In this document: positions 22,820 through 32,916 of the stretch, piece by piece
Position numbering within the stretch: position 1 is the stretch's first letter
Layout: each line of letters opens with the position of its first letter
Source of the DNA: Candidatus Binatia bacterium
GTDB taxonomy: Bacteria; Desulfobacterota; Binatia; HRBIN30
Direction of reading: 5' to 3'
Length of the DNA: 34,757 nt
Assembly (NCBI GenBank): GCA_038245295.1
Contig: JBBRSP010000045.1
Span: 1-34,757, forward strand
Made by a program: the position numbers and the translations under genes
The notes under the pieces: generated by a model
Told to the model about the DNA's origin: nothing
Databases searched by the model: none
The model's input: only the letters and a program-made list of their open reading frames with translations

Positions 22820-22958
22820 GGTTCTTGGTGCAGCTTCCCTCCTTCAGTGGCATGACGCTTCTTGCCCGACAATCATGTCATCCGCGAATGCACACAGCCC
22901 GGCGGTTGGCCGGAACCAACTCAGGCCAAGCATCCCTACCTCGGTCATTCCGGCGAAA

Positions 22959-23175
22959 GAGACTGTCGAGTTTCCATAGAACGGCGCTTCGAGACGCCTA
23001 TCCTGAGCTACGTCGAAGGGGCACCCGCAGGTCTTGCGCAATTGGTGCCTCCTCAGCGCGAACGGAAAAGTATCCTGGAGATCAAAGCACCCCGTTCGGG
23101 CTGAGGAGGCCCACCTGGTGAAATCCGATCCGTGGGGCCGTCTCGAAGCCCGCCCTAGACTTCATCGACAGTCTC
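22959..23175. mobile_element. 217-bp non-autonomous element (MITE) with 11-bp terminal inverted repeats and 4-bp GAAA target duplication
   Basis: GAAA|GAGACTGTCGA...TCGACAGTCTC|GAAA; excision restores the palindrome GTCATTCCGGCGAAAGCCGAAATCTCCC. Confidence 0.75.
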
Positions 23176-23230
23176 GAAAGCCGAAATCTCCCACGCATTC
23201 GAGACTGTCGTAAAACCAAAGTGGAGCAAG

Positions 23231-23294
23231 GTCATCCCGGTGAAAACCGGGATCTCCCGAAAGCGGGCGAGATACCGGCTTGCGCCGGTATGAC
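23231..23294. repeat. REP-like palindrome doublet (GTCATYCCGG..CCGGGATC / GATACCGG..CCGGTATGAC)
   Basis: GTCATCCCGGTGAAAACCGGGATCTC and the inverted GAGATACCGGCTTGCGCCGGTATGAC. Confidence 0.8.
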
Positions 23295-23370
23295 GGAGGG
23301 AAAGATGGCTGCAGTGCATGTACGACCTGCAGCCTTCGCGATGGAAGCACTGTCGTGCTGGGCAGGCAGT

Positions 23371-23652
23371 ATGATGAGCGCGACGACGAAGCGTGGCGGC
23401 GCAAGGGTGTCGAAGGCACAGTCTCCATCGGAAGATCGCAGCCTGACACGCGACGAAATCGAACGACTCTTCGTTTCCGAATGGGTGCTCGTTGAGAGCC
23501 CGTCGAGCGACGTCGACCTACAGGTTCGCAAGGGAATTGTGGGCTGGCACAGCGCCGATCACGACGAAGTCTACCGCAAGGCAATCGAGCTCAAACCAAA
23601 GCGGGTCCTCTTGTTGGACACCCATCCACAAGACTCGGCGATTGTGCTGTGA
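23371..23652 (+). CDS. Small hypothetical protein (DUF5678-like); start uncertain
   Basis: LTRDEIERLFVSEWVLVE...G.V.WHSADHDEVYRKAIELKPK resembles a small-protein family I recall; the 3' end lies inside repeat copy A. Confidence 0.55.
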   Translation: MMSATTKRGGARVSKAQSPSEDRSLTRDEIERLFVSEWVLVESPSSDVDLQVRKGIVGWHSADHDEVYRKAIELKPKRVLLLDTHPQDSAIVL

Positions 23653-23724
23653 GATCAGCCCCGGGAATGAACGCACCGCTCAGCGACTGTCGCCGGGCGG
23701 AGATGGGGAGTCCTTCATGCCGCC
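23610..23724 (+). repeat. ~115-bp dispersed hairpin repeat, copy A
   Basis: CTTGTTGGACACCCATCCACAAGACTCGGCGATTGTG...CGGAGATGGGGAGTCCTTCATGCCGCC; aligns with 28470-28584 and 32570-32682. Confidence 0.95.
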
Positions 23725-23740
23725 CTACTGGTGGCAAACT

Positions 23741-23769
23741 TTGACAGAGTCTGCCACCGACAGTACACT
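23741..23769 (+). promoter_or_regulatory. Sigma70-type promoter of the parDE operon with overlapping inverted repeat
   Basis: TTGACA(23741)-17 nt-TACACT(23764); imperfect inverted repeat GGTGGCAAACTTTG-A-CAGAGTCTGCCACC spans the -35. Confidence 0.75.
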
Positions 23770-23775
23770 GCTCGC

Positions 23776-24054
23776 ATGAAGACGAAAGCTCTCACGAGCA
23801 TGAACATCTCCATTCCTTCCGCCTTGCGCGAACGGCTTGAGGAGAAACTCGCTCGCCACGCCTACAGCTCTGCGAGCGAATACGTCCGGCAGCTGATCCG
23901 CCAAGACCTCGAGCGCGACGTGCGGGAGAAGGTGGAGGCGCAGCTTCTCGAAGGGGTCGGCTCGAAGGGGCGCATCAAGGTCACGCCGAAATGGTGGGCG
24001 GATAAGGAGGCGATGCTCGGTGCCCCCTCTCGGCGTGCTGCCAAACGCGCGTGA
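23776..24054 (+). CDS. Type II antitoxin, ParD-like ribbon-helix-helix
   Basis: TSMNISIP...YSSASEYVRQLIRQD...LLEG; stop overlaps the toxin start (GTGA). Confidence 0.85.
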   Translation: MKTKALTSMNISIPSALRERLEEKLARHAYSSASEYVRQLIRQDLERDVREKVEAQLLEGVGSKGRIKVTPKWWADKEAMLGAPSRRAAKRA

Positions 24055-24365
24055 AATTCGACCTCATCGTTAGCGCAGCGGCTGACGAGGATATCAACGG
24101 CTACATCTCCTATACGAACGAGCGGAGCCCAAACGCCGCTCGGCGCTTCCTTGCCGCCCTCCGCGTGGCCTTTGATCGGATCCTGTCGATGCCGGAGATT
24201 GGCCACGTTTGGGAAACCGACCGCCAGGATCTCGCAGGTCTCCGGGCCTGGCGGATTGACGACTTCCCCCTGTCGATCTTCTATTTTCCTCATTCGACGG
24301 CCATCGAGGTGATTCGCGTCCTTCATCACTCACGCGACATCAAGGTGATTGTCGAAGACACCTGA
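24051..24365 (+). CDS. Type II toxin, ParE/RelE family
   Basis: AADEDI..YI...SPNAARRFL...MPEIG...LRAWRIDDFPLSIFY...IEVIRVLHHSRDI. Confidence 0.88.
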   Translation: MKFDLIVSAAADEDINGYISYTNERSPNAARRFLAALRVAFDRILSMPEIGHVWETDRQDLAGLRAWRIDDFPLSIFYFPHSTAIEVIRVLHHSRDIKVIVEDT

Positions 24366-24651
24366 TGGCGGTGCGGGCGTCAGGAAAAGATCGTTTGCGA
24401 ACTTCTGCACGGTGAGTTTGCCGAGACACCCACTCACCCCCGCCAACGACGTGAGCCCCGACATCACGGGTGACATTGCTGCAGTCCAGTCCGGAAGGTG
24501 TGTATGCTGGCCCGCCAACGCCTGGGCTGTGCGGCGAAGGGCAATCGCACGGTGGTGAGTTGTCCTTCTTGCGCCGACTTACCCCCGGAGTTTGCTTTGA
24601 CATGAGCCCGTGAGCCGCCGATACATGAGACTCGACGAAGGGGCACATCCG

Positions 24652-25214
24652 ATGGCGAGAACGATCCTGACGATCACGTGCGGCGCGCTGCTTCTGGCTG
24701 GAACGGCGCTGGCGGCACCGACAGCGCAGCAGCACTGCGATTACCAGCGCCTTGTAGCGTTCAGAAAATTCCAGGCGTGTACAAGAGACTACGGTCGCAC
24801 CGCACGCCAAGGGCATTTACTTTGACGAGTTCCAAACGCTGGCAAGATGTCGCCACAAGTACTTCGGCGAATGGACACAGTTTCAGGGCAAGGTGTCATT
24901 GCAAGGCAGCAACTGCATAGGTAGCCGGTTCACCGACAACGGTGATGGAACAGTTACGGATGGTCTGACCGTTCTCGTTTGGGAAAAGAAGATCAACCAC
25001 GACGACGTGGCAAACTACTCGGATCCACATGACGCCGACAACGGGTATTCGTGGGGATTCGAGGGTTCCCAAAATGGCAGCGCATTTAGCGACTCCTGGT
25101 CCGACCCAAGCTGGAGTTCCCTATGCGTACAAAATCGACTTTGGGGATGGAACCAGTCACCCCGCGCAGAAATCAAGCGGAGGACGAAGCCATGCGGTAC
25201 GAGCAGGACTTTGA
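24652..25214 (+). pseudogene. Secreted DUF1566 (Lcl C-terminal-like) protein, frameshifted and internally deleted
   Basis: Signal peptide MARTILTITCGALLLAGTALA; second frame RFTDNGDGTVTDGLTVLVWEKK; third frame AYKIDFGDG..K..SHAVRAGL*; no WRLPT..EL core. Confidence 0.7.
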
Positions 25215-25245
25215 CCTCGGTGGGCATTTACCTAAGGTCTCGCAC

Positions 25246-25305
25246 TGGACGAGTGCACCGCTCAGTGACTGTCGCCGGGCGGAGATGGGTGTCCTTCCTG
25301 CCGCC
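25246..25305 (+). repeat. Right half of the ~115-bp dispersed repeat, copy D
   Basis: TGGACGAGTGCACCGCTCAGTGACTGTCGCCGGGCGGAGATGGGTGTCCTTCCTGCCGCC. Confidence 0.9.
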
Positions 25306-25426
25306 GCTTCGTGGCCTCGCCGCCATCCTCATCGGAGGCGGCGAGGCGGATCATGTGCGCCGGTTGTTTGGGGGACGCGGGTACCGTCTTCGCGATTGTT
25401 GGGAGAATCGCGACAATCGCAACCAC

Positions 25427-25690
25427 GAGCTTGTGAAAAAATCGCCTCCTTCCACGAGAACCATGCTATATACATCGTGACGCGATGGATTGTGGTGGGA
25501 GGTGGCGAGGATGGGGCAGAGCGGAGTCAATTGCAGCTGCGCAGCTTCGATCTCGACTCAACGATTCCAAAAGATCATAGGGCGCGATTACTGTGGCGGG
25601 CGGTCGAGACTTTAGACCTCTCGGCATTCTACGAGCCTATCAAGGCACGAGTTGGCATCGCCGGCCGGCCGTCGGGGGATCCGATATGGC
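25427..25690 (+). mobile_element. IS1182-family remnant: probable left end plus N-terminal transposase fragment
   Basis: ERSQLQLRSFDLDSTIPKDHRARLLWRAVETLDLSAFYEPIKARVGIAGRPSGDP matches IS1182 N-termini; upstream GAGCTTGTGAAAAAA resembles a terminal inverted repeat. Confidence 0.7.
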
Positions 25691-26082
25691 TCAGCGCCAG
25701 GGCGGGGCGACGAGCGAAACTGACGCGCGCATCGCGCGGCACAAGCAAGCTAGACCAGCCGGCGCCGCCGTTGCCGACACACGGAGTGAGGCTTCGAAGA
25801 CGCGCTCAGCCTCGCACCCGGGCAAGGGATGACGATTGGCTCGCGGCATTCGCGCTCATTCCGTAGAGCCTCACTTTCGCGGCGAGAAATACGGCTCTAA
25901 GGCTGAAAACCGCCCTGGAATTTTCCGAATGCCCAACATCATCCGGCACATCGCTTGGTCCGATCCCGCCAAATCCTCGCGAGAATCGCCCGAATCGCCC
26001 GTAGGTCGCTTTTGCCGCCCCGCACTCGTGTGTCGGCGCTTGACTCTCCCCGTGCCCCTGGAGGAGCCTCAGCCGAGGGCAA

Positions 26083-28236
26083 ATGAAAATCTGTTTCCGC
26101 TTGTGCTTGGCGCTGACATTCCTGCTGGTCGCGCACGGTGGCGCCGCCGCCGCGATCACGGAGGTAGCGCTGCCGACCGCGGCGGCGGATCCGCAGTCAA
26201 TCACCGTCGGACCTGACGGAGCCTTATGGTTCACGGAATACCGTGGCAACCGCATCGGGCGCATCAGTACCGCAGCACCACACATCGTCACCGAGATAGA
26301 GCTTCCGCAGCCGGCGCACTTCCCCTCCCGCATTACATCGGGGCAAGACGGCAGGCTTTGGTTCACTGAGCTCAAGCCGCGCGCCATCGCCAGCCTCGAT
26401 CCGAATAACCCGGCGGTCATCGACGAGATCGACCACGATCCGAACGATTGGCCCAGCGCCATCCTTGGCTTGCCCGATGGCAGCATCTGGTACGCCGATG
26501 AATTGCGCCCCCAGTTGACCCGGATCGACGGCAGCAACCACGATTCGATCACGACAATCCCGATCAGTACGCGAGCCAGTCGACTGATCCTCGGGCCGAG
26601 CGGCGACCTTTGGTACGCCGGAGTCAACCTCCTCGGACGAGTCGCAACCACCCCGCCCTATGCGGAGAGCGACGTGCGACTGACCGCACGCAATGGCAGC
26701 ACCGCCCTTGCGGCCGCCTCCGACGGCACCATGTGGGCCACCGGCTTCTCCTTCGGTAACTCCGGCCTAACGCGCTTGTCGGGTAGCGGCTTCATCGACG
26801 TCGATCGCATGGCTCTGCCGTTCTGGCTGTATTCCGTCGGCATCGTTCGCGGCAGCGACGACAATCTGTGGATTGCCGATGGGCGGGGGAATCTGATGCG
26901 CGTCTCAACTCAACCCCCTTACGCCAAAACGATCTTTCCTCTGGCGCGCGCGAGTCTACCGACCGACATCGTCAGTGGCCCCGACGGCAACCTGTGGGTC
27001 ACCCAAAGCGGCACCAACAGCATCGCCATCATCACTCCCGACACACCTGCCCCGCAGCCGGCGACGGTTGTGGTGAACAGTACGCGCGACACCCAGCTTG
27101 CGGCAGACGACGAGTGCACGCTGCGTGAAGCGATCGCCAATATCGATGCACCCGGAGACGTGAGTGGTGGCGACTGCGCCGCGGCCGCGGGCATCGATGA
27201 TACAATCACCTTCCACCTGCCATCCTATCCGGCCGTCGTGCGCTTGCGCGCTTCACTCTTGATCGATCGCCGCTTCACGATCCGTGGGCCATTCCCGGGG
27301 ACACCGCAGTCGCTGCGGATCGATGGCTTTGGGCGCAATCGCATTCTGCGAATCTATGATGGGGAGATTGAGACGCACGACGTGACCTTTCAGCACGGCA
27401 CCTTCTACGCCCCGTTCGACCTCAACCACGCCGGCGGTGGCGCGGTGAGCGTGCATGGCGAGGCACGCTTCTTCCACACCGACTTCGTTTGCAACCACAA
27501 CTCATTTGGCGGGGCGATCTATGCCGACGAGGAAAGCCGGCTACAGTTCGCCGATTGCCGCCTTGTGCGGAACAAGTCTACGATCGGCCCGGTAATCTGG
27601 AGCGATGGCCCGGTGACGATGGATCGATGCACCATGCAAAATAATGTCGGAGGCGGCGTCAAGGCGGTCACGCTCACGGTCACAAACAGCACTTTCGCAG
27701 CGAACCGCAACGGCTCTGCGATCGTTGCCGCAACGCTCCTTCTCAGCAACTCAACCTTCGATCGCAATCGCGGCGCCGCCCCTGTGGTTCAGGCAAGCGA
27801 GGGCACCGTGACGAGCTCGACGTTCACCAACAATTTTGGTGATTTGCTCAGCTCCCGCGGCAGTTCGCTGCAGATCGGCAACAGCATCATGACCCGCTGC
27901 TTTCGCAGCAGTTGCCGCTCGTCCGGCTGCCCTTCTATCGCCTCGGCCGGCCACAACCTGAGCGATAACAGTTGCGTGATGGCGGCCCCAGGCGACCTCG
28001 TCGCAACCGATCCCGGGCTGACGCGCCTCGCCGCCTTCGGCGGCCCAACGCGCACGCGCGCCCTATGCACTGGCGCGGGCGAGCCCCGCGCCGCCTGTAC
28101 ATCTCGCAGCCCAGCCATCGACGCCGGCGACGACACGGTCCTCGATCCGCCGCTCGCCCTTTCGCACGATCAACGCGGCGAGCTGCGGCGCGTCGGAGCG
28201 CACGTCGACATCGGCGCCACCGAATCCGCCCCGTGA
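26083..28236 (+). CDS. Secreted protein: Vgb-lyase-like beta-propeller, CSLREA domain, beta-helix and choice-of-anchor-Q-like C-terminus
   Basis: Signal peptide; repeated ITVGPDGALWFTE/IVSGPDGNLWVT; VVNSTRD..CTLREAI; DPGL..LAAFGGPT..SPAIDAGD..DQRG..DIGATE. Confidence 0.85.
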   Translation: MKICFRLCLALTFLLVAHGGAAAAITEVALPTAAADPQSITVGPDGALWFTEYRGNRIGRISTAAPHIVTEIELPQPAHFPSRITSGQDGRLWFTELKPRAIASLDPNNPAVIDEIDHDPNDWPSAILGLPDGSIWYADELRPQLTRIDGSNHDSITTIPISTRASRLILGPSGDLWYAGVNLLGRVATTPPYAESDVRLTARNGSTALAAASDGTMWATGFSFGNSGLTRLSGSGFIDVDRMALPFWLYSVGIVRGSDDNLWIADGRGNLMRVSTQPPYAKTIFPLARASLPTDIVSGPDGNLWVTQSGTNSIAIITPDTPAPQPATVVVNSTRDTQLAADDECTLREAIANIDAPGDVSGGDCAAAAGIDDTITFHLPSYPAVVRLRASLLIDRRFTIRGPFPGTPQSLRIDGFGRNRILRIYDGEIETHDVTFQHGTFYAPFDLNHAGGGAVSVHGEARFFHTDFVCNHNSFGGAIYADEESRLQFADCRLVRNKSTIGPVIWSDGPVTMDRCTMQNNVGGGVKAVTLTVTNSTFAANRNGSAIVAATLLLSNSTFDRNRGAAPVVQASEGTVTSSTFTNNFGDLLSSRGSSLQIGNSIMTRCFRSSCRSSGCPSIASAGHNLSDNSCVMAAPGDLVATDPGLTRLAAFGGPTRTRALCTGAGEPRAACTSRSPAIDAGDDTVLDPPLALSHDQRGELRRVGAHVDIGATESAP

Positions 28237-28469
28237 GCCCGACCGCGGACACTGTATGTGGACACCTATCCCTCAACGGAAGACCAGTTGCCGCACGACC
28301 CAGCGGTTACGTAGAGATTGGCGGCTTTACGGCGCAATCGGAATCCTGCGCCGGTCCGTGTCCCCGACGGCGGACTAGAAGCCCCCGAGCCGCTTTCGCA
28401 GATCCTAGAGAGGCTAAGCGGGATCGGTAGAATAGGCCAACTCTTGCTCGGAGCTGTGTGGGCGGAGCG

Positions 28470-28584
28470 CTTGTTGGACACGCACCCACAACACTCGGCG
28501 ATTGTGCCGTGAGATCAGCGCCTTGGATGAACGCACCGTTCAGCGATTGTCGCCGGGGCGGAGATGGGTGTCCTTCTTGCCGCC
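28470..28584 (+). repeat. ~115-bp dispersed hairpin repeat, copy B
   Basis: CTTGTTGGACACGCACCCACAACACTCGGCGATTGTG...GGAGATGGGTGTCCTTCTTGCCGCC. Confidence 0.95.
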
Positions 28585-28605
28585 GGACCCCTATCGCCGC
28601 GGGTT

Positions 28606-29091
28606 CTATTGCCGCCGAGTACACGAAGCGTCGTCGAAGCAACTCGCATCGCCGCAGTCGCAGACAGACACCTGATGGCTGGCGTCCGGCGCACAACCGC
28701 ATGCGCCGATCAGGCAGGTGTTCGGGAAATCGCTGGCGCTGGCGCAGCACAAGGCTGATGTCACCGTGCCGCCCGAATCACGGCAACGCTGATCGGCGGA
28801 CTGCTGTCGATGCGGAACATGCGGTGGGTGCGGAACATGCGGCGCGCGTGGCAAATGAGAGTGGTCGGGAACGCAGGCGCAACGTTCAGGAGACCAGTGG
28901 AAACCGCGGATGCACAAACCGGTCTCGACGCATGATACCGGGGTTGGGGTCGCTGTCGGTGTCGGACACCCGACACTACTGCACGCGGGCGTTGTTGGCC
29001 GAGCATTCGCAGCGCCAAGGTTGACATGGACGAGGACCAAGGAAAGTGTGACGACCGCGCAAAAAAACCGAGCGATACAACCCTGCTGCAT
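28606..29091 (-). CDS. Small secreted Cys-rich protein with PT linker and PHVPH repeats
   Basis: Signal peptide ending ANA; GAGGGGAG RBS; C-terminal C..SGGTV..LCC....DFPNTCLIGACGC.P..SH...CDC...CF. Confidence 0.7.
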   Translation of the reverse strand: MQQGCIARFFCAVVTLSLVLVHVNLGAANARPTTPACSSVGCPTPTATPTPVSCVETGLCIRGFHWSPERCACVPDHSHLPRAPHVPHPPHVPHRQQSADQRCRDSGGTVTSALCCASASDFPNTCLIGACGCAPDASHQVSVCDCGDASCFDDASCTRRQ

Positions 29092-29682
29092 GGCATTCTC
29101 CCTCTGGCCCCGGTGAGCCGCTCACGGCGCATAACTTCAATCGATGCGAAGGATGAGCCGGGCAAGCGCGTCGCGTCAACCAGGAATGAACTGATGGTTG
29201 TGGGTCGCCGAGACGGTGCGACCCCCGAACCGTAGTCCCACGCGCGTAGTACTCCGGGCTTACAGCGTCGCAAGACACCTAGTAGAAGTTCTGAACACGC
29301 ACCAATCGTTAGATCAGTGTCAACTATCGCACGAAGAGACCATGTGGGTGTGGGTTGTCGACTCTGCCCCACGACGAAAGCGAGCGACCCGAACACCAGA
29401 ACGAACCGGTTGAATTCTAGCCCAGAGCAGCCCTTCCCCGTTGACGCCGCCCAAGCGTCTGAATACGCTTCCAGTGCTGCACCGACGTGGTGACTGGGTC
29501 TCCTCCAGTTCCAAACACAAACAGGCATGCCCTCTAGTTAGGGCATGTTGGGTGCCCCTTCAGCCTGACCCGTGAGACTGAAGGTTGCTGACAAGCAGCC
29601 CCGGAAAGCGGGGCCGGAGCGCTTGTGGGCCTGTGCCTGCGCCGGGGGCGTCGGCAAATTCATTCGATCAAGGAGATAGACA

Positions 29683-32508
29683 ATGAGGCGGCAAGGCATA
29701 CTAGCACTCGCGGCGAGCTTTCTAGCGCTGTGGGTCACAACGTCCAATGCGGCGACAACCTGGAGTGTTCCGGGTAACAACTCGAACGTCTGCACCGTGG
29801 TAAACCCGAACTGCAACACCATCGCCCAGGCGGTGACCGCCGCCACTAGCGGCGACACGATCAACATCGGCGCCGGCAACTTCCCGGCGCCTGCCGCGAT
29901 CGTCCTCACGAAGACGCTCACCATTGCGGGCGCGGGCATCGGTGCGACTTTCGTGCAGCCGACCAGCGCCGGTTTCTCGGTGCGTACCAACGACATCGTG
30001 ATCCGCGACCTCGCGATGCAGAACGGCACCGTCGGCATCGCTTTCCAAAGCGCCTCCAGCAACAACACGCAGATCACGCGGGTGGCTTTCAGTGGTCAGA
30101 CGTCGCGCGGCATCGACATGCAGCTTGCGGCCACGTTCCTGGTCAGCAATGTGGTGATCACCGATTGCCAGTTCGCCACGACGAACATCGGCCTCCGCAC
30201 CTCGTCCACCACTCAGGTGGCGGGGCTCACCATCACCGGAACCAGCTTTACCGGAAATCCCTACGGCATCTACGTAGCGAACGACGGCAACAGCTCGAAA
30301 TTCTCGGGTCTGACGATCCAGAACTCGACGTTCACCAACAACACCAACTACTCGATTTATGCCGAGGAGATGCGCGACTGCTTGATCGAGGACTCGACCT
30401 TCACCGGCGGCTCAACTGGCATCGGGCTGTTCAAGTTCTACAGCAGCAACGCGACAGCGATGTCTAACATCACCATCCGCCGCGACCAGTTCTCACAACA
30501 CCGCGGTACGGCGCTCGACATCGAGATGTTCGCGATGGCCTTGCAGACCCCGATCGACATCTCCGCCAACACGTTTGCTACCGACGTCAGCGTCATCACC
30601 TCGAACGCCTCGGCAATCTTCACGTTACTAAGTAGCAGCTTCACCACGCACGCGGCGATCAACATCACCAACAACACGTTCACCGCAACGGGAGCCTTCG
30701 CCAGCGCTACCGCCACACACGGTATCCGCATGCGCGGCAACGGACCACTGGTCATCACCGGAAACTCCTTCGACGGCGGCAACGTCGGCGGCAGCGGTAC
30801 GACCCCCGACAGCAGCGCTCTGTGGATCGAGTCGAACCCCGGAGCGATGGCTGCAACTGCTACGTTCACCGCCTCTTGCAACCGCATCGGCGGCTTCGAG
30901 AACGGCGTCAGCGTTTTCAACTCGACAGCCGGCACGTATGGTGGGCTGCCGTCTTCTGTCGCGGTTACGCTGACCACCAACAACATCGTCGGCAACAGCA
31001 TTGTCGGCGTGATCAACGGCGCCGCGCCGCCAACCGTGAGCGCGATGAACAACTGGTGGGGTTGCCTTGCCGGCCCAGGCAATGCCGGCTGCGATACGAT
31101 CAGCGGCGGTGTTGACGCCAGCAACTTCGCGACGACGCCATCGACCTGTGCCCCCTGTGTCAGCAACTCGCAATGCGAAGACTTCAACCCTTGTAGCGTC
31201 GATATTTGCTCAATGACCTGCTCGAACAGCGCGGGCAACTCCGGCACCACCTGCCGTGCCGCCGTCGCTGTCTGTGACCAGCTCGAGACCTGTGACGGCT
31301 CCAGCATCACCTGCCCGGCGGACGCATTCCAAGCCAGCAGCGTCGTTTGCCGCCCCTCGGCGGGCGTCTGCGACCCAGGCGAGAACTGCACCGGGTCAGC
31401 CGCAGCATGCCCACCCGACGCCAAGAGTAGCGTTGTTTGCCGAGCCGCGGCTGGCGTTTGCGACATCGCCGAGAGCTGTGACGGGGTTGGCAATGCCTGC
31501 CCGGTCGACGCCAAGAGCTCTGCCGTTTGCCGGCCCGCTGCCGGCGTTTGCGACGTCAGTGAGAGTTGCAACGGGGTTGGCGATGCCTGTCCGGTCGACG
31601 CCAAGAGCTCTGCCGTTTGCCGGCCCGCCGCCGACGTTTGCGACGTCAGTGAGAGTTGCAACGGAGTAGCGGACAATTGCCCCGCCGATGCCTTCCGGTC
31701 GAGTGTACAGGTGTGCCGTGCAGCAGCCGGGAGCTGCGATGTCGCCGAGAATTGTACGGGGGCGGGTGCCGCATGCCCGGCCGACACCTTCCAGCCAAGC
31801 ACTTCGGTCTGCCGTGCCAGCGCCGGAACCTGCGATGTGGCCGAGAGCTGCACGGGCTCCAGCGCCCCTTGCCCAAGCGATGCCTTCCAGGCGTCGACCG
31901 TCGTCTGTCGCGCCGTCGCCAGCAACTGCGACGTCGCTGAGAGCTGCACCGGCTCACAAGCGGCTTGCCCCATCGACACTTTGCAACCGGACGGCTCGAT
32001 CTGCAACGCCGGCAACTTCTGCTCCGCCGGAGTCTGCCAGGCGCCTAACTCGTTGGTACTGAGCCGCGCCAGTCTTTACGTCAACGCTCGCGCTAACCGG
32101 GCCAACGGCCGCGCTACTGCACGATCGCTGGTAAACGACAATGACACGGGTGGAACGCTGGAAACGCAACTGCTCGCCGGTACGGTGACGCTGCGGATCC
32201 AGGATGCCGGCACCTTTACCGTCACCCGTACTTTCAGTAACTGCACCAAATCGAGGACTCGCATCCGCTGCCAAAGCGCCGACCGCAAAACCAACGCCGC
32301 CTTCGCTTCCCGCCCCGGCCCGTACATCTACCAGATGCGCGTTCGGTTCAGTGGACTCGGGAGCCTCGAAACCGGGGGCACGCGTCCGACCGGCCCGGTC
32401 ACGGTCACAATGGATCAAGGAGGCCTGGCAACCCGCGACGACGTAATCGGCAACATCGTCCCGTGTTGGTCGCACTGGCCGACGCGACTCACCTGCCGCG
32501 AAGACTAA
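29683..32508 (+). CDS. Large secreted protein: parallel beta-helix, 8 disintegrin-like Cys repeats and a basic C-terminal domain
   Basis: AAGGAG RBS, signal peptide, CNTIAQAVTAATSGDTINIGAG, T/S/N-rich beta-helix, NNWWG, repeats CRxxxxxCDxxExCxGxxxxCPxD. Confidence 0.9.
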   Translation: MRRQGILALAASFLALWVTTSNAATTWSVPGNNSNVCTVVNPNCNTIAQAVTAATSGDTINIGAGNFPAPAAIVLTKTLTIAGAGIGATFVQPTSAGFSVRTNDIVIRDLAMQNGTVGIAFQSASSNNTQITRVAFSGQTSRGIDMQLAATFLVSNVVITDCQFATTNIGLRTSSTTQVAGLTITGTSFTGNPYGIYVANDGNSSKFSGLTIQNSTFTNNTNYSIYAEEMRDCLIEDSTFTGGSTGIGLFKFYSSNATAMSNITIRRDQFSQHRGTALDIEMFAMALQTPIDISANTFATDVSVITSNASAIFTLLSSSFTTHAAINITNNTFTATGAFASATATHGIRMRGNGPLVITGNSFDGGNVGGSGTTPDSSALWIESNPGAMAATATFTASCNRIGGFENGVSVFNSTAGTYGGLPSSVAVTLTTNNIVGNSIVGVINGAAPPTVSAMNNWWGCLAGPGNAGCDTISGGVDASNFATTPSTCAPCVSNSQCEDFNPCSVDICSMTCSNSAGNSGTTCRAAVAVCDQLETCDGSSITCPADAFQASSVVCRPSAGVCDPGENCTGSAAACPPDAKSSVVCRAAAGVCDIAESCDGVGNACPVDAKSSAVCRPAAGVCDVSESCNGVGDACPVDAKSSAVCRPAADVCDVSESCNGVADNCPADAFRSSVQVCRAAAGSCDVAENCTGAGAACPADTFQPSTSVCRASAGTCDVAESCTGSSAPCPSDAFQASTVVCRAVASNCDVAESCTGSQAACPIDTLQPDGSICNAGNFCSAGVCQAPNSLVLSRASLYVNARANRANGRATARSLVNDNDTGGTLETQLLAGTVTLRIQDAGTFTVTRTFSNCTKSRTRIRCQSADRKTNAAFASRPGPYIYQMRVRFSGLGSLETGGTRPTGPVTVTMDQGGLATRDDVIGNIVPCWSHWPTRLTCRED

Positions 32509-32514
32509 TCTGCT

Positions 32515-32554
32515 CCCTCCTCTTGCCCGGCCTCGGCCGGGCAAGGAGGAGGGG
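32515..32554. repeat. GC-rich hairpin after the 29683-32508 stop (terminator-like or REP-like)
   Basis: CCCTCCTC-TTGCCCGGCC-tc-GGCCGGGCAA-GGAGGAGGGG; no U-tract. Confidence 0.6.
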
Positions 32555-32569
32555 CGCTTGTTGGAGGCG

Positions 32570-32682
32570 CTTGTTGGACACCCACCCACAAGACTCGGCG
32601 ATTGTGTTGTGAGATCAATGCCTTGGATGAACGCACCGCTCAGCGACGGTAGCCGGGCGGAGGTGGGTGTCCTTCATGCCGC
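32570..32682 (+). repeat. ~115-bp dispersed hairpin repeat, copy C
   Basis: Perfect 11-bp inverted repeat GGACACCCACC (32576-32586) / GGTGGGTGTCC (32662-32672). Confidence 0.95.
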
Positions 32683-32916
32683 TCTCTTCGAGTCCGCGCA
32701 CCAGCTTTCTTCTAGCCCTATCAGGACAAGGGCAAATGGATAGTTCGCAAGACTGCGTTCATCGACTCGCTTGCGCTGCGGAAGCACCACGGAAGCAAGC
32801 GACGCAAGCAGCGACGATTTTCCCTCGGACGGTCATGTCGCCGAACGGCTTCCGTTCTGAGCCCGGCCAACAGAAAATGGTTTCCAATCGAGGGATCGAG
32901 CTGTAGACCGTTCCGA

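Follow-up and report, generated by a model that had tools for sequence, protein, structure and literature searches.

A dispersed inverted-repeat element in a Binatia genome, probably born from host gene DNA and moved by subclass 2.3 TnpA-Y1 enzymes

Main

When one ~115-bp sequence with inverted ends recurs between the genes of a short contig, is it a site for gene exchange, a folded RNA or a mobile element? We addressed this question for contig JBBRSP010000045.1 (34,757 nucleotides; hereafter the window), which is contig C45 of a 129-contig, 6.63-Mb genome (G000, completeness 96.6%; assembly GCA_038245295.1) from a Candidatus Binatia bacterium of the Desulfobacterota. A first-pass annotation, made from the letters of the window alone, had described several copies of the element and suggested that they might be recombination sites of a cassette-like acquisition system, REPIN-like elements mobilized in trans by an HUH enzyme of the RAYT/TnpA kind, or a structured non-coding RNA. 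Our analysis supports the second suggestion and narrows it to subclass 2.3 of the TnpA-Y1 enzymes. The best explanation of the whole, which we consider probable, is a non-autonomous subclass 2.3 element born from the DNA of a host gene, probably at the first copy in the window (copy A).

Results

Copies of the element

The reported copies were all recovered, each on the forward strand: full copies at 23610-23724, 28470-28584 and 32570-32684, and a right half at 25246-25304. As we delimit it, copy A spans 23604-23724 and comprises a ~12-nt outer leader, a core and an 11-nt right leader, with the left motif RGACACCCAY at 23616-23625 and a degenerate right motif at 23703-23713. The second full copy (28464-28584) has a mutated left motif (GGACACGCAC) and a right motif that ends at 28573, and the third (32566-32682) has two perfect motifs, at 32576-32585 and ending at 32672, 97 bp from motif to motif. 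Both are 79-83% identical to copy A without gaps. In the right half copy (25241-25307), the right motif is intact and ends at 25294; 25206-25240 may be the decayed left part. The terminal repeats first described for every full copy are perfect in the third alone, since copy A ends in GATGGGGAGTCC and the second copy begins with GGACACGCAC; the inner CTCGGCGA/TCGCCGGG match is present as described.

An iterated nhmmer profile search of the genome gave 29 matches at E up to 1, of which 20 exceeded 40 bits, our threshold for a copy or half copy. These 20 occupy 12 of the 129 contigs, four in the window and 16 elsewhere, mostly single and in mixed orientation within contigs C9 and C10. Confinement to an accessory region, as first claimed, holds inside the window only. 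At 11 of the 16 loci outside the window, a Pfam scan of the longest reading frames, 77 in all, found mostly metabolic or housekeeping families, including aminotransferase, DeaD-type helicase, ABC transporter, CoA-transferase and radical-SAM genes, along with two secreted-type proteins. The 11 aligned full copies are 79-93% identical with star-like divergence, and they have decayed equally in motif and core (differences from consensus, 0.086 in motif columns and 0.085 in core columns). BLAST did not find the family in 60 relatives, none of them of the same genus, and an exact pattern did not find it in GTDB contigs or metagenome contigs.

A single motif bounds several unrelated families

The genome contains the word GGACACCCAC 82 times, more often than 59 of 60 shuffled words. 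Clustering 200 motif sites revealed several unrelated families, all bounded by the same inward-facing motif: the present one, two more at 96-98 bp and another at 161-166 bp. A transposase gene lies in each of the two longest bracketed units (1471 and 1489 bp). The 165-bp family has a 39-nt segment in common with the left end of 2.3 genes (E 2.6e-6) and is an internal deletion of an autonomous element. In the present family, conservation extends 7-13 nt beyond the motif on both sides. The bases preceding the motif are variable, the outer bases are family-specific with a purine bias only, and the ends contain no GTAG or GTGG tag and no local hairpin. We considered a fixed length of 96-98 bp, which three unrelated cores share here, and dropped it, relatives filling the whole 80-110-bp range searched; remote homology among core families was likewise unsupported, except between two of them.

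Separately, two 165-bp motif-bounded elements at C40:43069-44258 (L022) flank and truncate a transposase gene, which we take to be IS91-like; these same-orientation copies around ~1 kb could form a composite unit. Genomes G004 (L137, L147) and G011 (L140) hold 18 and 10 short inward motif pairs, respectively, in small shared-core families and dense mixed arrays.

The motif brackets subclass 2.3 genes

Three full-length genes (on C34, C40 and C71) and one cut by a contig end (C98), plus fragments, encode proteins of 320-323 amino acids with NHFH, WE, YVDLNP and TS signatures and an HuH-Y spacing of 104 residues (H71 to Y175). We predict that these are TnpA-Y1 (RAYT-like HUH) enzymes of subclass 2.3 because their signatures match those given for it: NH[YF]H, WE, YVDLNP and TS, a length near 325 amino acids and a median HuH-Y spacing of 110 (passages of PMC6006769). 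In a fold search, the best match was E. coli TnpA-REP (4er8; Z 12.1, rmsd 3.2, 158 aligned), with the C-terminal half barely covered.

The passages of PMC6006769 on automatic and manual searches report no REP-like sequences at 2.1 or 2.3 genes. Here, by contrast, a 10-bp inward motif and several non-autonomous families accompany subclass 2.3. The inward motif stands at the genome's own 2.3 genes on C71, C34 and C98, and takes the form AGACACCCAA at C40. Among scorable flanks of 27 2.3 loci in relatives, it faces inward at 20 of 26 upstream and 16 of 25 downstream, and outward at 6 and 4; it was met in 2 of 145 control windows and in 1.1% of random 600-mers. An independent set of 80 metagenomic 2.3 loci gave inward motifs at 34 upstream and 30 downstream flanks (of 58 in each case), with 0 and 2 outward. 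De novo, the top orientation-biased 8-mer around these 80 loci was GACACCCA, inward in 73 flanks and outward in 2. Inward pairs 80-110 bp apart were present in 8 of 15 relatives with a 2.3 gene versus 2 of 45 without (Fisher p 9e-5); in a sample of 200 genomes from the phylum, none had such pairs and one had a 2.3 gene. Because the element and the brackets of 2.3 genes have this inward motif in common, it is likely that the element was spread in trans by 2.3 HUH enzymes, an activity that we infer from the link. Nothing in the literature searched, including the text supplements of PMC6006769 and PMC3733652, was tied to the motif or to 2.3 ends; figures, non-text supplements, subscription journals and ISfinder lay outside that scope.

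Stutter repeats keep a fixed outer boundary

The ends of 2.3 genes and of the small elements are often repeated head to tail. At window 32553-32575, for example, a 13-nt abortive left-end repeat on the forward strand (32553-32565; leader plus the first 3 nt of the motif) lies immediately 5' of the third copy. All 20 near-perfect tandem units (periods 28-82 bp) start 7-14 nt outside the motif (P ~1e-6 under random phase, with the proviso that units from one locus are not independent), and their inner extent varies from 0 to ~60 nt. Metagenomic loci contributed 13 further units, with best starts 7-15 nt outside the motif and one ambiguous (0-11). We set aside a count of starts at <=14 nt over 121 pairs, since the scoring forces it for periods up to 24 nt. 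HUH enzymes keep the 5' end as a phosphotyrosine that any 3'-OH can resolve (passages of PMC8266576), so that a fixed 5' start with a variable 3' end is what nick-and-rejoin chemistry would be expected to leave. Two truncated copies are joined to unrelated DNA by homology, 15 nt exact on C34 and ~25 nt imperfect at C9:132917.

The following scheme would account for these patterns. The enzyme would bind the motif with no need of a hairpin, nick ~11 nt 5' of it and stay tied to the nicked 5' end through its tyrosine. The freed 3'-OH would be extended by a variable length and rejoined to the fixed 5' end, producing stutter repeats. Joining of the 5' end to a 3'-OH elsewhere would give new copies, truncated ones being completed via microhomology. 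The Rep protein of adeno-associated virus, although of an unrelated Rep class, is likewise a Y1 HUH enzyme that binds a short duplex motif and nicks a short fixed distance away. As to the nick-and-rejoin detail, we regard its chances as evenly balanced.

At C71:254-449 (L020), the right end of one 2.3 element is present in seven tandem copies with two different outer leaders; this array suggests successive rounds at one site.

The left part of the element traces to a host gene

Copy A overlaps the 3' end of a small conserved open reading frame (23374-23652, forward strand; 92 amino acids, no Pfam family), as the first-pass annotation had seen; the last 15 codons and the stop lie inside the copy. 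The reading frame belongs to a family of widespread small proteins (16 homologs, 76 loci, many phyla) whose C-termini read ...YTG.LPKDTAIVL, compared with ...DTH--PQDSAIVL in the window protein. The codons of the latter ending are the left part of the element: copy A completes the gene in frame, and every aligned copy reads similarly in the gene's frame. At many loci, the family's stop overlaps the start of a next gene with a DTGA motif, presumably an aspartyl protease.

Of the 76 loci, 35 have an in-register neighbour, and a profile of these native junctions served to score the element. The left inner 27 nt scored 22.2, versus a null maximum of 9.7 in 3000 random genome windows, and the left part stood at z 5.7-6.3 against shuffles, with 0 of 300 as high. 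The left motif sits on the Y-T-G codons, where 18 of the 35 natives already match 6/9 bases, the figure for control windows being 56 of 315. The right part keeps approximate register with the start of the protease gene, its motif near W-G-P codons; the native junction profile alone did not detect the element's right half.

Since the gene family occurs in many phyla and the element in one genome, we take the element to derive from the gene. Near-motifs in the gene's last codons, and perhaps in the protease gene start, may have become true sites, and a ~120-bp piece of host DNA would then have been released as a new family, a gene origin being demonstrated for its left part and presumed for the rest. 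The gene is single copy in the genome, and copy A is, of the 11 aligned copies, the most similar to native gene ends; by sequence, we therefore lean towards copy A as the source locus. The pattern at copy A would look the same under selection on the protein or after homing back. Local spread from copy A would explain four copies within 9 kb.

Points against this reading and rival explanations

Several results weigh against a gene-derived element moved by 2.3 enzymes. The match of its right part to the gene junction is weak: 23 and 137 of 1500 null windows did as well (p about 0.015-0.09), and its z of 1.8-2.2 was reached by some controls. The 115-bp family matches the inner ends of the autonomous element over only 13-14 nt. 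At gammaproteobacterial 2.3 loci, the motif or a close variant occurs in only 3 of 7, a fourth fitting a looser pattern only. Within the host family alone, motif pairs occur in 7 of 13 genomes with the gene versus 2 of 12 without (p 0.097, not significant, and kin are non-independent), and genomes G009 and G010, both fragmented, have pairs yet no 2.3 gene that we could find. One half copy abuts a subclass 2.1.2 gene. A circle or skip joint across a copy was found in neither of two contig sets (assembled contigs, two samples, one study). With within-genome paralogs as reference, none of the 20 copies has a clean empty site, and the element's ends are accordingly placed by conservation and stutter phase.

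We weighed four other explanations. If a cassette-type acquisition system recombined at the elements, the 2.3 enzymes acting as its integrase and the mobile units being the stretches that separate copies, one would understand why 4 of the 20 copies are co-oriented within 9 kb, why copy A is followed by a ParE-type toxin-antitoxin pair with its own promoter-like site, and why 6 of 20 copies fall no more than 3 kb from a contig end, a zone that makes up 9% of the genome. In addition, 9 of 40 flanks match a paralog or repeat, never the same one on both sides, up to a point no more than 35 nt from the tested flank edge, and several copies mark the exact point at which homology to a paralogous locus begins or ends. 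To this extent, the proposed coincidence of module boundaries with the repeats was correct; cassette modules themselves were unsupported. The 16 copies elsewhere are mostly single with metabolic neighbours (at the 11 loci scanned), the motif is no better conserved than the core, a motif is broken in two of the window's three full copies, we found no module that copies flank on both sides at a second locus, and the family was not found in the 60 relatives. Copies in the window are spaced 1.6-4.1 kb apart with mixed content between them. We found no reverse transcriptase in the 96.6% complete genome, and of its 11 tyrosine recombinase matches, not typed as integron integrases, only those on C1 and C21 share a contig with a copy, at least 70 kb away. 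Genome-wide copies, neutral decay and the lack of a clean empty site or array structure make the cassette system unlikely. The copies are scars, often at junctions of unrelated sequences, and not maintained cassette sites; an intergenic position could also explain why they so often mark such junctions.

It is similarly improbable that the mobilizer is a subclass 2.1 (TIRYT) enzyme of the genome, or that several TnpA-Y1 types use the motif. GGACAC is common to the motif and to the GGGGWSAS consensus of TIRYT terminal inverted repeats (passages of PMC3733652), at C9 a left half runs straight into the 5' region of a 2.1.2 gene remnant, and motif-bearing families lie upstream of the C58 gene. The genome's 2.1 genes, however, have inverted ends of their own, beginning GGGGAC or GGGGTC and near the TIRYT consensus; ~25 nt of imperfect homology accounts for the C9 join; and no word is more enriched around 2.3 genes than the motif. 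A structured RNA or regulatory element selected for folding, by comparison, is very unlikely. Although 91% of proposed-helix cells are paired and one of six strand folds reaches z -2.4 (range for single-stranded DNA, -0.8 to -2.4), as much pairing was reached by 469 of 500 shuffles. Of the 9 copies that have letters in both columns of the pair first reported as covarying, 5 are mismatched there; one pair only changes on both sides, and the RNAalifold covariation term was +0.76 kcal/mol (11 copies, limited power). Rfam gave two chance-level matches, neither on a copy, and the divergence is star-like with uniform rates. Star-like divergence, equal decay of motif and core and no support for a fold: the pattern is what a burst confined to one lineage, and neutral decay after it, would leave. 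An ordinary MITE (a miniature transposable element with inverted repeats) of a DDE transposase, its motif match incidental, would fit the length of ~100 bp, the short inverted ends and the ~20 dispersed copies. In 12 full copies, however, the longest direct repeats at the ends assumed here resembled a mismatched-pair control, with no target-site duplication above it; conservation runs 7-13 nt past the inverted motif on both sides; and the element has its stutter phase in common with 2.3 gene ends. We consider this origin highly improbable.

Other features of the window and of 2.1 loci

A lone AGACACCCAC end at 24424-24520 (forward strand) belongs to another, unrelated family with the same motif and pairs with C67:3541 (80% over 104 nt). 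The statement that the window encodes no mobilizing enzyme stands, with one qualification: 25817-25849 on the reverse strand is an 11-residue match to the start of another TnpA-Y1, a 5' remnant of a different subclass (C58 type) and not the cognate enzyme (tblastn, 10/11 residues, E 0.012). The DUF1566 label applied to one gene found no Pfam match in the one frame scanned. Judged by eye, 24653-25130 is a frameshifted secreted-protein remnant, with what we take to be a DUF1566-like motif. A high-copy palindromic repeat pair at 22940-23300 (201 BLAST matches in the genome), presumably CGTC-REP-like, contains a ~220-bp element with GAGACTGTCG inverted ends, and C38:37484-37699 is another copy of it (91%). 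The stretch 25371-25432 holds ends of subclass 2.1.2-type elements (GGGGAC... and a C90-type end), the scar of a second HUH family adjoining the right half copy. At 25499-25684, a 5' remnant of an insertion sequence, presumably IS1182-like, matches the ends of contigs C20 and C18. At 28261-28280, GGACACCTAT is followed by sequence resembling another motif family's end, too short for a BLAST match.

Elsewhere, at C90:400-1020 (L004), a short membrane-protein reading frame lies between two outward-facing 2.1.2 ends and adjoins a transposase gene, a possible cargo arrangement for the 2.1 system; further along C90 is what, from the consensus as we know it, we take to be an attC-like site. Motif-bounded ends join a 2.1.2 gene fragment to unrelated genes at C49:218-1276 and C9:231222-231607, with 6 nt of near-homology at the C49 junction. 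Passages of a preprint tie subclass 2.1 enzymes to variable gene clusters, the causal claim having been withdrawn (10.1101/2020.03.09.984088).

Discussion

The element appears to function like a REPIN or a TIRtron-derived repeat: a non-autonomous inverted doublet whose probable cognate Y1 enzyme, recognized by the shared motif, is encoded elsewhere in the genome. As described in passages of PMC8266576 and PMC5581495, REP/REPIN-RAYT systems (TnpA-REP groups 2 and 3) also consist of inverted non-autonomous doublets moved in trans by a Y1 HUH enzyme, with 5'-phosphotyrosine/3'-OH chemistry and cleavage outside the recognized element, both of which we would expect here. Unlike them, the present family has no GTAG tag, no hairpin at each end and no evident fixed CT cleavage dinucleotide, numbers ~20 copies rather than hundreds and has a core from coding DNA. 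TIRtrons, with their TIRYT genes (Di Nocera et al. 2013, PMC3733652, in part), are likewise RAYT-like genes bracketed by inverted repeats rather than hairpin REPs, and their repeats are likewise dispersed as singles, dimers and clusters, as we find. Their consensus, GGGGWSAS in the majority but not all of the repeats, differs from RGACACCCAY; the passages describing them contain no fixed outer boundary, stutter or gene-derived core; and the 26 TIRtron examples assigned in the passages of PMC6006769 fall in subclasses 2.1, 2.2 and 2.5, none in 2.3. Subclass 2.3 as described there (Quentin et al. 2018) resembles ours in several diverged copies per genome, a length of ~320 amino acids and a long HuH-Y spacing.

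Prokaryotic MITEs are likewise short, non-coding and dispersed, with inverted ends (passages of PMC10969869 and PMC3733652). Unlike the MITEs of PMC10969869, the present family has a repeat of 10-11 bp that is subterminal, lacks a target-site duplication and is not an internal deletion of an autonomous element. Replitrons (10.1101/2022.12.15.520654, in part) also use a Y1 HUH enzyme; they are eukaryotic, belong to an unrelated Rep class and have direct-repeat ends. Integron arrays bound single-gene cassettes, whereas 16 of the 20 copies here are dispersed. An attC site has RYYYAAC first and GTTRRRY last on one strand; here, GTTGGAC stands at the left end of the forward strand only, and the right end reads GTCCTTC.

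The cassette-system reading does not hold. For a subclass described as without repeats, we offer a concrete candidate substrate, RGACACCCAY, and predict a cut ~11 nt 5' of this motif, so that 2.3 function is now directly testable by the published cleavage and strand-transfer assay. The results also bear on a question that the passages of PMC3733652 leave open, namely whether repeat families of this kind are still arising de novo: the left part of the present family traces to an ordinary gene still in place. More tentatively, and as a possibility that we would not yet favour, subclass 2.3 TnpA-Y1 may be a hairpin-independent recombinase that reads a 10-bp motif, cuts ~11 nt away in a ruler-like manner, moves or rejoins any DNA between two inward motifs, repeatedly turns pieces of host genes into mobile families and stitches together unrelated ends, with copy A as a birthplace caught in the act. 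Should the enzyme indeed move any DNA that two 10-bp motifs enclose, it would count as a very compact mover of cargo and would give rise to local rearrangements.

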